Positions 1,239 through 5,152 of a DNA stretch of 5,152 nucleotides are shown here, piece after piece (within the stretch, counting starts at the first letter, position 1; each line of letters starts with the position of its first letter). Location of the stretch: IMG/VR virus record IMGVR_UViG_2706794698_000004. One strand, 5' to 3'. The position numbers were made by a program, and so were the translations under genes. This DNA comes from a virus (Duplodnaviria > Heunggongvirae > Uroviricota > Caudoviricetes). The notes beneath the pieces are model-generated. The model did not search any database. It had not been told where the DNA came from and saw only the letters and a program-made list of their open reading frames with translations.

Positions 1239-1241
1239 ACA

Positions 1242-1424
1242 CTATTTACCTCCGCCGACAGACTGCCGTGTACGGTCGAGATATCGCGCCACCAGCCACG
1301 ACCAGAACAGGCACAGCGCCCCGGCAACAACAAAACCCGCCGGGGGATAAATCAGCCAGGCACCATACGCCAGCAAAAGCGCACCCAGCACGCCCACCAG
1401 AGGCGCGAGAATCAGCATGATCAT
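1242..1424 (-). CDS. Small hypothetical membrane protein (60 aa, two predicted hydrophobic segments) between terminase large subunit and portal
   Basis: ATG 1424-1422 preceded by GAGGT (1433-1429) with a 4-nt spacer; stop TAG 1244-1242. Translation [60 protein letters not shown] has two hydrophobic stretches and a basic C-terminus. Sits in the same operon with 13 nt between the TerL stop and its ATG, and its stop overlaps the first possible portal start. No family recognised. Confidence 0.55.
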
Positions 1425-1428
1425 AATT

Positions 1429-1433
1429 ACCTC
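1429..1433 (-). promoter_or_regulatory. Shine-Dalgarno (GAGGT) for the 60-aa ORF, placed right after the TerL stop codon
   Basis: Minus-strand sequence TAA-CT-GAGGT-AATT-ATG read directly from coordinates 1438-1422. Confidence 0.5.
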
Positions 1434-1435
1434 AG

Positions 1436-3169
1436 TTAAAGCGAGCGGATCCCGTAGGACTCAATGTGGTCAGACAGCGTGTCTTCTTTCTCGTACAGCA
1501 TGGCTCTGCCAACCGCCATAATCAGCGCAACTGCACCATCGATTTTGTTTTCCGCCTGCTCTTTGACGGGTTTCACCACATCATCGTTACCCGGCATGTT
1601 TTTGCCGACCACGTTGCCGATACACCAGGTCATGATGGGATTGCCGTCATGATGAAAACGTCCCGATTCAATCGCTGCTTCCAGCTCTTTCATCGGATCG
1701 GACATATTGGTGAAGTTCTGGACGATAGTGACGGGATTCAGGTCTTCATCAGCAAGGTCATGTGACAACCCGGTCGCCCCGAAGGGGTCGATGGGTGACT
1801 CACTGACCGGGCTGATTTTGTTCGCCGCTTTGGCCTCCTCGAGGATGTAGCGATAATCCACCTCCGCACCATCGGTAACGGTCAGAACGCCCATTTCCAC
1901 CCATTTCTGAAAGCGTTCGGCTGTCCGTCGATCTTCATTTTTCTCGACGCTGTACACCGTGTCATACGGTACCCAGAAACGCGGGGCCACACTGTAGTAA
2001 TGCGTTTTACCGTCAATCTCGCGGGTATAAAGTCGCGCCATGCTGTTCATATCCAGCTTACGCGCCAGGTCAAAGGCCAGAATGCACGGCTGCCCCTCGA
2101 ACTGCTCAAGGGTCAGTGATTTATCCTCGCAGCTCTGCCAGCTCACCAAGTTGAAATACGCCGAACGCGCCGACACCCAGATATTGAGGTGTTTTGTTTT
2201 AAAGACGTTTGCCAGACGGGCGTTATTTTTCGCACGCTGCTGCTGACTTAACAAAAATTCGCGATAAACCGACACGCCAATATTTGGATTGGCTTTTTCC
2301 AGCACCTGCGGGCCGGTCCAGTCGTCACCTTCATCAACGGTATAGATGATCCCGAACAGTTCATCGTTAGGCACCGAGCCGTTGAGCATCTCGATGACTT
2401 CCCGCCGCTTGTCGTAGCACGGCCCCTCAATGTTGTACCCGGCGGTGGTGATGGCCCACATCAGTGGCTGACGTCGCGCCCCCATCCCGGTAAGCATTGT
2501 GGTATAAAGCGCATCGGTGGCATGCTCGTGATATTCATCAACCACGGCACAGTGGGGTGATGAACCATCACCTGGGTTGCCGATCAGCGGTTCAAACCGC
2601 GCGCCATCCTCCGGACGGTTCATGTTTGAGGCGTTAACCTCAATCCCGAACGCTTCCGTCAGCATGGGTGTGCGTTTACACATCAGTCGCGCCGGGCGAA
2701 AGACTTCCCACGCCTGTTTCTCTGTCGTGGCACCGGAATACACTTCCGCGCCAAACTCGTTATCACAGGCAAAACAATACAGGGCAACACCGGCAGAGAT
2801 TGCTGATTTGCCGTTCTTACGGGGGATTTCGGTGTACACCTCCCGGAAGCGGCGCAACCGGGTGCCTTTATTGACCCAGCCAAACGCACAGCAGATCACA
2901 AATAGCTGCCACGGCTCCAGCGTGATGGGCATCCGTTTGAATGCCCACTCCCCCTTGGTGTGCGGCAACAGCTGAATAAATTTCGCGGCCCGTTCAGCCA
3001 GGTCCTTGTCGAAGCGGTAACGAAACGACTTACTTTTTTCCGCCATCAGGTCATCAAGATGGCGCTGGCAGGCCTGAATCACAAACTGGCAGGCAACAAT
3101 CTTTCCGCGCACGACATCCCGGGCATACTGATTTGCAGCATTTACGTTGGGGTAAGATTTCCGGCTCAT
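1436..3169 (-). CDS. Terminase large subunit (HK97/Terminase_1 type ATPase-nuclease)
   Basis: 577-aa minus-strand ORF, ATG 3169-3167, stop TAA 1438-1436. Walker A-like PRKNGKS (nt 2824-2804), Walker B-like VVDEYHE, and C-terminal acidic nuclease-type motifs ([20 protein letters not shown]). Its ATG overlaps the upstream TerS stop as ATGA. Family assignment from memory of terminase architecture, not from a search. Confidence 0.93.
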
Positions 3170-3549
3170 GATTCGATAATTTTCAGAAACGGGTTAGTGG
3201 CTTTCTTCTGCCCCGCCAGGCCAATCAGACGCTGGCGGCTGCTGGGGTCGAGTCCGAGCATTGCCCCCGTGCTGCTCATCTCGGACTCCTGTTCTTTTTT
3301 GGCGGTCAGCTCCGGATTTTTGACCCTGCCGCCCATTGCACCGGTGATGGTGTTGCCCTGTATGGCAATATTTTTCACGGCACGTCGCCAGAACTCATAG
3401 GCCACGCACCACCGCTCAAGTACCGCCAGGTCAGTCACGCACAGCAGGCCCTGACCGCAGAGTTCTTTGGTTGTCAGTTGCCACATGATCGTGGCGAGAG
3501 GGAGATCTTCTTCAGCGAACCACTCTGGTGGCTCAACACCTTTGATGGG
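3166..3549 (-). CDS. Terminase small subunit, P27-like (C-terminal 127 aa visible; N-terminus hidden in N-run)
   Basis: Minus-strand frame open from the N-run to TGA 3168-3166, which overlaps the TerL ATG. Visible translation [16 protein letters not shown]...[15 protein letters not shown]...[16 protein letters not shown]...KIIES* resembles P27-family small terminases (from memory). Position directly upstream of TerL supports the call. Confidence 0.78.
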
Positions 3550-3550
3550 C

Positions 3551-3802
3551 NNNNNNNNNNNNNNNNNNNNNNNNNNNNNNNNNNNNNNNNNNNNNNNNNN
3601 NNNNNNNNNNNNNNNNNNNNNNNNNNNNNNNNNNNNNNNNNNNNNNNNNNNNNNNNNNNNNNNNNNNNNNNNNNNNNNNNNNNNNNNNNNNNNNNNNNNN
3701 NNNNNNNNNNNNNNNNNNNNNNNNNNNNNNNNNNNNNNNNNNNNNNNNNNNNNNNNNNNNNNNNNNNNNNNNNNNNNNNNNNNNNNNNNNNNNNNNNNNN
3801 NN
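3551..3802. other. Run of 252 N (masked or unresolved bases); hides the HNH 3' end, the HNH/TerS intergenic region and the TerS 5' end
   Basis: Directly visible as n characters. Confidence 1.
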
Positions 3803-4035
3803 GCCTCGCTCACCACACCGACACGCAGACACAACTGACACAGACCTTTATCGCGCTTCAGAATACGGGCACGAATCACCGTCCATTTTGAGCCATAGCC
3901 ACGCTGGTGGCGGCTCAGTCCGCGCTGGTGCTGCACCCAGCCTTCACCGCGATGTTTATCGCAGTAACCCGAACTGTCTGTGGTTGTACCTGCACATCCA
4001 CGCTTACGGCAGGCACGTGGGATTAGTGATGGCAT
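3803..4035 (-). CDS. HNH endonuclease (N-terminal 77 aa visible; C-terminus hidden in N-run)
   Basis: ATG 4035-4033 preceded by GAGGT (4044-4040) with a 4-nt spacer. Translation MPSLIPRACRKRGCAGTTTDSSGYCDKHRGEGWVQHQRGLSRHQRGYGSKWTVIRARILKRDKGLCQLCLRVGVVSE has a Cys/His zinc-knuckle (CRKRGC...YCDKH) followed by an HNH-type core (W..IRARILKRDKGLCQLC). Confidence 0.85.
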
Positions 4036-4039
4036 AAAT

Positions 4040-4044
4040 ACCTC
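4040..4044 (-). promoter_or_regulatory. Shine-Dalgarno (GAGGT) for the HNH endonuclease gene
   Basis: Minus-strand GAGGT-ATTT-ATG read directly from coordinates 4044-4033. Confidence 0.5.
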
Positions 4045-4077
4045 ATACCCTGCGAAATGTTTACCACGATAAAAAGG

Positions 4078-4356
4078 CTACTTAATGCACTGAGTGCGGA
4101 TATACTCCTGTGCCCCTTCCAGTTGCATCTGCATCGTCATCAGCCGCTCTCTGAGGGTGAAATAATCCCGTTCAGCGGTGTCTGCCAGTCGGGGGCTGGT
4201 TGCATTATCCACGCCGGAGGCGGTGGTGGCTTCACGCACTGACTGACAGACTGCTTTGATGTGCAACCGACGACGACCAGCGGCAACATCAGCGCGCAGA
4301 GTTTCATTTTCAGCTTTCGCATCAGCTAACTCCTTCGTGTATTTAGCATCGAGTGC
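4078..4356 (-). CDS. Rz: Rz i-spanin, C-terminal segment (copy B; 92 codons visible, no start codon visible, upstream part in N-run)
   Basis: Minus-strand frame reads [92 protein letters not shown] with stop TAG 4080-4078. This closely matches the C-terminal ~90 residues of lambda-type Rz as I recall it. The ORF track only reports 4078..4266 because it starts at an internal TTG. Confidence 0.8.
   Translation of the reverse strand, partial: ALDAKYTKELADAKAENETLRADVAAGRRRLHIKAVCQSVREATTASGVDNATSPRLADTAERDYFTLRERLMTMQMQLEGAQEYIRTQCIK
4140..4322 (-). CDS. Rz1: Rz1 o-spanin (outer-membrane lipoprotein), embedded in the +1 frame of the Rz C-terminal segment
   Basis: 60-aa ORF with ATG 4322-4320. 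MRKLKMKLCALMLPLVVVGC has a signal peptide with a lipobox-like VVGC, followed by a proline-rich stretch (PPPPP) and ending in ISPSESG, matching lambda-type Rz1 from memory. The embedded arrangement is canonical for Rz/Rz1. Confidence 0.85.
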   Translation of the reverse strand: MRKLKMKLCALMLPLVVVGCTSKQSVSQCVKPPPPPAWIMQPAPDWQTPLNGIISPSESG

Positions 4357-4358
4357 AT
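4304..4358. repeat. Direct repeat copy 1 (55 bp, abuts the N-run); identical to 4639-4693
   Basis: Base-by-base comparison: tcattttcagctttcgcatcagctaactccttcgtgtatttagcatcgagtgcat at both positions, offset exactly 335 bp. Identity stops at 4303 vs 4638; further left the two flanks are only partly similar. Confidence 0.95.
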
Positions 4359-4611
4359 NNNNNNNNNNNNNNNNNNNNNNNNNNNNNNNNNNNNNNNNNN
4401 NNNNNNNNNNNNNNNNNNNNNNNNNNNNNNNNNNNNNNNNNNNNNNNNNNNNNNNNNNNNNNNNNNNNNNNNNNNNNNNNNNNNNNNNNNNNNNNNNNNN
4501 NNNNNNNNNNNNNNNNNNNNNNNNNNNNNNNNNNNNNNNNNNNNNNNNNNNNNNNNNNNNNNNNNNNNNNNNNNNNNNNNNNNNNNNNNNNNNNNNNNNN
4601 NNNNNNNNNNN
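4359..4611. other. Run of 253 N (masked or unresolved bases) between the two repeat copies in the spanin locus
   Basis: Directly visible as n characters. Confidence 1.
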
Positions 4612-4612
4612 C

Positions 4613-4657
4613 CATTATCAAGCTTGCGCCGAAGAGCATCATTTTCAGCTTTCGCAT
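4613..4657 (-). CDS. Second Rz1-like o-spanin start (copy A; first 15 codons visible, remainder in N-run)
   Basis: ATG 4657-4655 is exactly 335 bp from the Rz1 ATG at 4322-4320 and lies in the +1 frame of the Rz copy A segment. Reads [15 protein letters not shown], sharing MRKLKM with Rz1 and then diverging. Only 15 residues are visible, so the call is tentative. Confidence 0.35.
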
Positions 4658-4877
4658 CAGCTAACTCCTTCGTGTATTTAGCATCGAGTGCATTAACATC
4701 ACGCTGTCTCTGCTGCATGTCAGTAATGGTTGCGTTCGCCAGCTTCAGTTCTCTTGCGTTTTTGTCGCGCTGCTCTTTGTAGGTAATGGCGTTATCACGG
4801 TAATGATTAACAGCCCATGACAGGCAGACGATGATGCAGATAACCAGAGCGGAGATAATCGCGGTGACTCTGCTCAT
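4614..4877 (-). CDS. Rz: Rz i-spanin, N-terminal segment (copy A; 88 codons visible, continues into N-run)
   Basis: ATG 4877-4875 with GGGGG 5 nt upstream; its ATG overlaps the endolysin stop as ATGA. Translation [88 protein letters not shown] has an N-terminal hydrophobic transmembrane segment and is lambda-type Rz-like up to ENDALR, then diverges. The ORF-track GTG start at 4889 (MGAAM) is rejected in favour of the conserved MSRVTAI start. Confidence 0.8.
4639..4693. repeat. Direct repeat copy 2 (55 bp); identical to 4304-4358
   Basis: See copy 1. Lies within Rz copy A codons ~62-80 and contains the second Rz1-like ATG. Confidence 0.95.
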
Positions 4878-5152
4878 TGCTGCCCCCACAAACAGACTTC
4901 ACGCTCAATCTCACGACGGGTCATCAGCCCTTTCCATTGCTTACCGCCAGCATATGTCCAGCGACGTAGCTGGTCACATGCGCCTTTGATATCGCCCTGG
5001 TTTATTTTGCGAAGAAGCGTCGATGTTCTGAAATTGCCAGCGCCCACGTTGTAAACGAACGAGTAAAGAGCGCCGCGCGTTGTTTCCGGTATATCGACTT
5101 TGATGTACGGGTTAATTTGTCTGGCGACAGTGGCAAGGTCTTTATTCAGGAG
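4874..5152 (-). CDS. R: Endolysin, phage lysozyme family (C-terminal 92 aa; 5' end outside the window)
   Basis: Minus-strand frame is open from the window edge to TGA 4876-4874. Translation [92 protein letters not shown] is recognised from memory as the C-terminus of a lambdoid lysozyme-type endolysin (phage 21 R / RrrD-like). Position immediately upstream of Rz fits the lysis cassette order. Confidence 0.85.

Follow-up and report, generated by a model that had tools for sequence, protein, structure and literature searches.

The window, by which is meant the whole 5,152-nt stretch of DNA that was analysed, carries an exact 55-nt direct repeat beside a run of Ns within the lysis gene Rz, which raises the question of whether the genome itself holds this sequence twice or whether the second copy arose when the scaffold was built. 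As argued below, the repeat very probably belongs to the scaffold and not to the genome, being a false duplication produced by the scaffolding of two contigs that overlap by 55 nt.

When the window was compared with itself, positions 4304–4358 and 4639–4693 were identical, and the number of matches of this length expected by chance was 0 (200 shuffles). Allowing mismatches, the repeat grew to 64 nt at 95% identity (4295–4358 and 4630–4693). Core copy 1 (4304–4358, minus strand) stops at 4358, directly adjoining an N-run of 253 Ns (4359–4611), and forms the last 55 nt of the segment 3803–4358 (segment 3), being part of the genuine allele-A Rz. Core copy 2 (4639–4693, minus strand) lies inside the segment that follows the N-run (segment 4) and represents the same Rz nucleotides as copy 1 (nt 184–238). 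The offset of 335 bp between both copies, which is out of frame, is made up of the 253 Ns, 27 nt and the 55 nt of the core. Moreover, the sequences to the left of the copies (4277–4303 and 4612–4638) were identical at 13 of 27 positions, and the minus-strand protein readings of copies A and B diverge, copy B being read as ...AKAENETLRADVAAGRRR. The first-pass annotation of this DNA had described an exact 55-bp repeat whose first copy ends at the N-run, with left flanks that align in register and are about half identical, and had given the protein readings of both copies; the self-comparison with its shuffles, the start of the Ns at 4359, the count of identical positions and the minus-strand translation all agree with that description.

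The window compared with gap-free chromosomes

All genes of the window lie on the minus strand, in the order lysozyme R, Rz, HNH endonuclease, small terminase, large terminase, a 60-aa ORF and the portal gene. The large terminase gene (3169–1436, minus strand) is intact, and many chromosomes, as well as thousands of draft contigs, encode an identical protein. CP000038.1 (locus L010), which we take to be Shigella sonnei Ss046, is among these chromosomes. The segments 1–967, 1239–3550, 3803–4358 and 4639–5152 matched L010 and nine other loci exactly, so that the unmasked sequence of the window, about 4.35 kb, showed neither mismatches nor indels against the reference. In contrast, the lengths of the N-runs did not correspond to the real distances between segments, which in the reference were 243, 349 and minus 55 nt, against 271, 252 and 253 Ns in the window. 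In particular, scaffold gap 1 (968–1238) has 271 Ns in place of 243 real nt, scaffold gap 2 (3551–3802) has 252 Ns for 349 real nt, which cover the 3′ end of the HNH gene, the spacer and the 5′ end of the small terminase gene, TerS, and scaffold gap 3 (4359–4611) separates sequences that overlap, as segment 3803–4358 corresponds to L010 9270–8715 and segment 4639–5152 to L010 8769–8256, with exactly 55 nt in common. The whole region measured 4886 nt in the reference versus 5152 nt in the window.

The similar lengths of the three N-runs could suggest deliberate masking. However, an equal-length masking of real sequence was rejected, as all three lengths were wrong despite flanks that were 100% identical, and for this same reason (3/3 lengths differing from reality) the N-runs are taken to be scaffold gaps of estimated size. 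Thus, the 335-bp offset is very probably not a distance in the genome, and where the first-pass annotation fails is in its assumption of 253 real bases under the N-run. As a point against the scaffold explanation, repeats were not supported as the cause of gaps 1 and 2, since the sequence missing there occurs only once in most E. coli and its GC content is ordinary.

Some further features of this region were observed. At the left end of the window, positions 1–76 belong to the terminus of an IS4 copy inserted in the portal gene; this copy, which in L006 (13066–14495) is about 1430 nt long and has 20-nt inverted repeats, cuts the portal ORF short, and the prophage is considered defective because of this truncation. 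Between the large terminase and portal genes, a conserved and very hydrophobic 60-aa ORF (1242–1424, minus strand) was called in all related loci and had no Pfam match on record. Finally, in the spacer between the HNH and TerS genes (L010 about 9389–9509, under the N-run 3551–3802), seven Ts come after a G+C-rich inverted repeat, GGGGCGGGGCA...TGCCCGCCCC; this structure resembles a terminator, or it may belong to the cos region of the HNH-dependent packaging module.

Every locus with an identical large terminase had one uninterrupted Rz gene of 154 or 155 codons with the HNH gene directly after it, and the nearest complete E. coli genomes (99.2–99.5%) likewise had a single uninterrupted Rz followed by HNH. 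The core was present once in the gap-free loci L001–L012, L025 and L027, the last of which covers this region on one contig of 4812 nt. The first-pass annotation had proposed a homologous recombination or mosaic junction between two Rz alleles, or a partial tandem duplication, and had named one unbroken Rz gene of about 153 codons as the outcome that would speak against it; such a gene, of 154 codons, was found in every chromosome with flanks 100% identical to those of the window. Its view that two alleles meet at the junction is upheld by the comparison described below, but a tandem or mosaic arrangement within one molecule is not, given the single Rz with a single core in the gap-free loci.

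In the window, the 5′ part of Rz, the i-spanin gene (4639–4877, minus strand), has its ATG at 4875–4877 and comprises codons 1–79, including an N-terminal transmembrane segment whose hydrophobic character can be read directly in the sequence, and the allele-A 3′ part (4078–4358, minus strand) ends in a stop codon at 4078–4080. Joining 4877–4639 to 4303–4078 rebuilds the 465-nt, 154-codon Rz of L010, and the rebuilt 154-aa protein matched Pfam family PF03245 (E 2.8e-52). The gene of Rz1, a putative o-spanin lipoprotein of 60 aa (4140–4322, minus strand; PF06085, E 6.4e-20) with the lipobox-like motif LVVVGC, lies wholly inside Rz, in its +1 frame. The minus strand of the core reads AAGGAG, a 7-nt spacer and ATG CGA AAG CTG AAA ATG, thus holding the ribosome-binding site of Rz1 (Shine–Dalgarno AAGGAG), its ATG and its first six codons. 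Rz1 starts at nt 221 of the 465 nt of Rz, that is, at 0.47 of the i-spanin length, and an o-spanin start at about 0.4–0.5 of this length is typical of embedded spanins (PMC6139136). On the other side, the C-terminal 92 codons of endolysin R, a RrrD-like lysozyme (4874–5152, minus strand; PF00959, E 4.8e-29) called rrrD in the annotation of relatives, end in a stop codon that overlaps the Rz start (ATGA). As in the lambda-type embedded Rz/Rz1 (Kongari et al. 2018, PMC6139136), the i-spanin follows the endolysin and contains an o-spanin in the +1 frame; no notable difference from this type was found, and the identical protein was present on at least 999 contigs. Judged by its sequence, the locus is an ordinary lambda-type Rz/Rz1 predicted spanin pair in a defective prophage.

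Two Rz alleles and the Rz1 start region

Two alleles of Rz were distinguished: allele A, whose C-terminus is lambda/DLP12-like, and allele B, whose C-terminus is of the P22/HK620 type. In line with the first-pass annotation, the two flanks derive from different alleles, 4277–4303 from allele A (L010) and 4612–4638 from allele B (L013, L014, L024 and L031). The latter 27 nt (minus strand) are therefore foreign to the Rz of this prophage, and the 82 nt at 4612–4693 matched the allele-B genes of the same four loci exactly, with no match to L010. Allele B is very common and occurs in a different prophage of genomes also carrying A (RMDEC465 and FDAARGOS_943). In the finished genome of FDAARGOS_943, the exact match between the A and B copies is this 55-mer alone, unextended on either side: four SNPs appear 1, 3, 14 and 16 nt upstream of the core, with near identity beyond them, and no DNA similarity between both copies was found downstream of it. 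Comparing L010 (8531–8995) with L014 (2799–3266), A and B were about 98% identical over Rz nt 1–238 and unrelated thereafter, which places the switch at codon 7 of the embedded Rz1.

The SNPs separating A-type (VN) N-termini from the common B-type (AD) ones fall at 4694, 4696, 4707 and 4709, in a cluster of 16 nt (4694–4709, minus strand) where the window bears the A-type bases. Next to it, a block of 443 nt (4710–5152, minus strand) comprising the lysozyme C-terminus and the Rz 5′ part is identical in allele-A and allele-B prophages, and hence it is a repeat in genomes with both. The allele-B draft contig L024 was equal to the window over 5152–4710 and 4693–4612, differing only at 4709, 4707, 4696 and 4694. 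A genome with both prophages thus presents the shared block, the SNP cluster, the shared 55-mer and then the fork.

Hybrids of the two alleles were also found. A protein with the A-type N-terminus and the B-type C-terminus (P0001, 156 aa, ending in ...RIQCLGG), named 'MULTISPECIES: lysis protein [Shigella]' in RefSeq, was located by exact-sequence look-up on 239 contigs, the longest being of 4.56 Mb, while the AD N-terminus with the same Shigella-type B C-terminus was present on only 8 short contigs. The reciprocal hybrid (AD N-terminus and A C-terminus) appeared only on 6 Logan contigs of up to 4.8 kb and looks like the result of assembly chimerism. It was further observed that the Shigella-type allele-B Rz (L024 276–746; P0001 and P0003) ends in ...RIQCLGG (156 aa), versus ...RTQCLK (155 aa) in E. 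coli, the gene having a different 3′ end in that prophage.

Lambdoid phages are mosaics whose modules are exchanged at short conserved boundary sequences. In the above alignments, the core is the natural boundary at which a shared Rz N-terminal module ends and divergent C-terminal/Rz1 modules take over. The evidence favours an exchange across the core between co-resident prophages having happened in Shigella (P0001), and it likewise favours the Rz1 translation-start region being an intragenic recombination joint at which the co-evolving pair of Rz C-terminus and Rz1 is swapped as a unit. A module boundary this sharp fits a joint exchange of the interacting parts of both spanin subunits. As elsewhere in lambdoid phages, near-identical sequences give way to unrelated alleles, and a natural A/B recombinant exists in Shigella; in contrast to the usual case, the boundary is intragenic, in a dual-coding stretch, and lies between genes of different prophages, not as a junction in tandem within the window. 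That the Rz1 start region forms the mosaic boundary of the Rz modules is a minor and unsurprising point.

Probable formation of the repeat in the scaffold

According to the preferred explanation, the window would be a short-read scaffold of a defective HK97-like prophage, as present in Shigella sonnei-type chromosomes, with four contigs joined by N-runs of estimated length and with a single Rz/Rz1 pair at the real locus. The source genome would also carry a second lambdoid prophage that matches this one fully or almost fully in the lysozyme 3′ end and the 5′ part of Rz and has allele B as its C-terminal/Rz1 module. Assemblers would then break where the two genes part, at the downstream edge of the 55-nt core. 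Segment 3 would begin with the 55-mer and lead into the allele-A C-terminus, HNH and TerS, and segment 4 would comprise the shared lysozyme/Rz 5′ block and run through the 55-mer and a further 27 nt into the allele-B branch. By setting these segments adjacent, which is right with respect to the shared block, leaving their 55-nt overlap unmerged and writing 253 Ns between them, the scaffolder would have created the apparent repeat with its 335-bp offset. In this account, the comparisons show the exact overlap, the incorrect lengths of the N-runs, the single Rz of gap-free genomes, the recurring breakpoint and where the 27 nt come from, whereas the second prophage of the source genome and the behaviour of the assembler are what we infer.

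A de Bruijn graph with k = 55, a common default, gives overlaps of 55 nt between contigs. The 55-nt overlap of segment 3 would thus be set by the k of the assembler, if segment 4 is genuine or collapsed with the second prophage, and on balance segment 4 does seem to be either the genuine sequence of that prophage or a collapse with it. In either case, the repeat common to both prophages would run from the lysozyme gene up to and including the core. As to where segment 4 stops, the B-type alleles of L031 and of L014 and L024 differ at exactly the base following its 27 nt, and a fork between two B-like copies is a possible cause of its end. The k = 55 signature was absent at the left end of the window, where 76 nt, not 55, reach into IS4. 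Overall, the window looks like a whole small scaffold with repeats at both ends.

According to Ko et al. (2022, PMC9516828), a gap lying between two copies is a hallmark of falsely duplicated sequence in assemblies. The window resembles the cases described there in having an N-run between the copies, one of which abuts the gap, in the single copy found in gap-free assemblies and in a gap length unrelated to the real sequence. It differs from them in that those false duplications concerned vertebrate genomes, with heterozygosity as the driver, and in the present one the driver would be a pair of paralogous prophage genes in one bacterial genome.

If this explanation holds, independent assemblies should have contigs that start at the core and thereby encode one particular partial Rz of 92 aa. 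Exactly this partial protein, beginning at the core, was found in 29 blocks, all of them on contigs <5 kb, and L016–L022 (three NCBI drafts, two ENA metagenome scaffolds and two Logan contigs) start at base 1 of the core. Another draft scaffold, L015 (4853 nt), has the last base of the window as its first base, and 15 further places are similar to it. Its first contig is the 443-nt shared block down to 4710, followed by 14 Ns that stand for 16 real nt and take the place of the SNP cluster 4694–4709, after which it resumes at the core; no duplication of the core was found in it. The draft scaffold L034 has 108 Ns for 31 real nt in the core region, where a non-A upstream sequence is joined to an A downstream sequence, and a second N-run in the HNH–TerS spacer, as in the window. 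Thus, as is characteristic of false duplications, the breakpoint coincides with the boundary of the repeat, which is the maximal exact match between A and B within one genome, and recurs independently.

The right end of the window (5152, in the lysozyme gene) was also a contig start in 45 blocks of public assemblies. The contigs starting there carried differing downstream modules (Nu1/GpA, Terminase_3, Sf6-type and HNH/P27 terminases); several kinds of prophage evidently have the block made up of the lysozyme 3′ end and the 5′ part of Rz in common.

Alternative readings of the junction

Within the scaffolding explanation, and covered by the probability given to it, a less likely variant deserves some weight, namely that the 27 nt at 4612–4638 are not genuine contiguous sequence. 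The second prophage would then carry the common AD-type B allele, and segment 4 would be a phase-switched path or an extension by a gap filler, following allele A through the 16-nt SNP cluster but allele B once past the exact core, as k-mers of up to 55 cannot phase both. Consistent with this, in every locus read as contiguous DNA an A-type upstream part is followed downstream by A and a non-A one by B, and the 87-nt hybrid junction was absent from the genome, viral and metagenome contig collections and from 5,426 complete E. coli genomes. Furthermore, the Shigella-type allele-B contig L024 is AD-type, both variants of the SNP cluster are present in the genome of L015, as its gap shows, and the AD and A hybrid on 6 short Logan contigs indicates that such chimeras occur in public assemblies. 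However, the absence of the junction is weak evidence, as the DNA collections searched hold almost no Shigella genomes, and the VN and B protein is found on 239 contigs, one of them of 4.56 Mb, against 8 short contigs for the AD version. The case for a chimeric end of segment 4 is weakened by the natural VN and B allele being common in Shigella.

The tandem arrangement of the first-pass annotation, in turn, is very improbable. The source molecule would have to hold a hybrid Rz (A N-terminus, B C-terminus and Rz1-B) followed by a 5′-truncated A copy (about 50 nt, the core and the A C-terminus), with the N-run masking 253 real bases, as a fresh product of unequal or illegitimate recombination between the Rz alleles of co-resident prophages across the 55-nt Rz1 start region. 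Substrates for such an event exist, since both alleles co-occur in single genomes; an allele-B C-terminus of about 203 nt plus about 50 nt would fit the 253 nt, and the three N-runs resemble one another in length, as deliberate masks might. However, this reading needs three indels (+28, −97 and +335) placed exactly under the N-runs, with the rest 100% identical, and a chance coincidence between the left edge of the mask and the very base at which the alleles diverge. Moreover, independent assemblies break or have N-runs at that same base, the offset is out of frame, and the arrangement was absent from the gap-free chromosomes read and from the 5,426 complete E. coli genomes. No gap-free sequence with two cores was found among the loci read, no full-length match to a 1113-nt query was found in the 5,426 E. 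coli genomes (best 778 nt), the two gap edges at the spacing of the window had no match in the genome, viral or metagenome collections, and no X-containing gene product across the gap 4359–4611 was on record.

Lastly, a target-site duplication by a transposon or IS element hidden in the gap, for which only the direct repeats around masked sequence and the abundance of IS elements in these genomes speak, has a negligible probability, as the first-pass annotation had also judged, because what adjoins copy 2 is Rz coding sequence, homologous and in register, and not the end of an element, the 253-nt gap is too small for an IS and, to our knowledge, 55 nt is far longer than the target duplications of IS elements.

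With the false duplication as the preferred explanation, the case advises caution, since N-runs in draft scaffolds do not keep the real lengths and repeats that bracket them should be suspected of being unmerged contig overlaps. Taken at face value, the present repeat would give a falsely split or duplicated spanin gene, and public protein collections already hold many partial Rz and some apparently chimeric products of this locus. The public Rz protein clusters contain many fragments of 41–136 aa from contig ends, named 'lysis protein, partial'.
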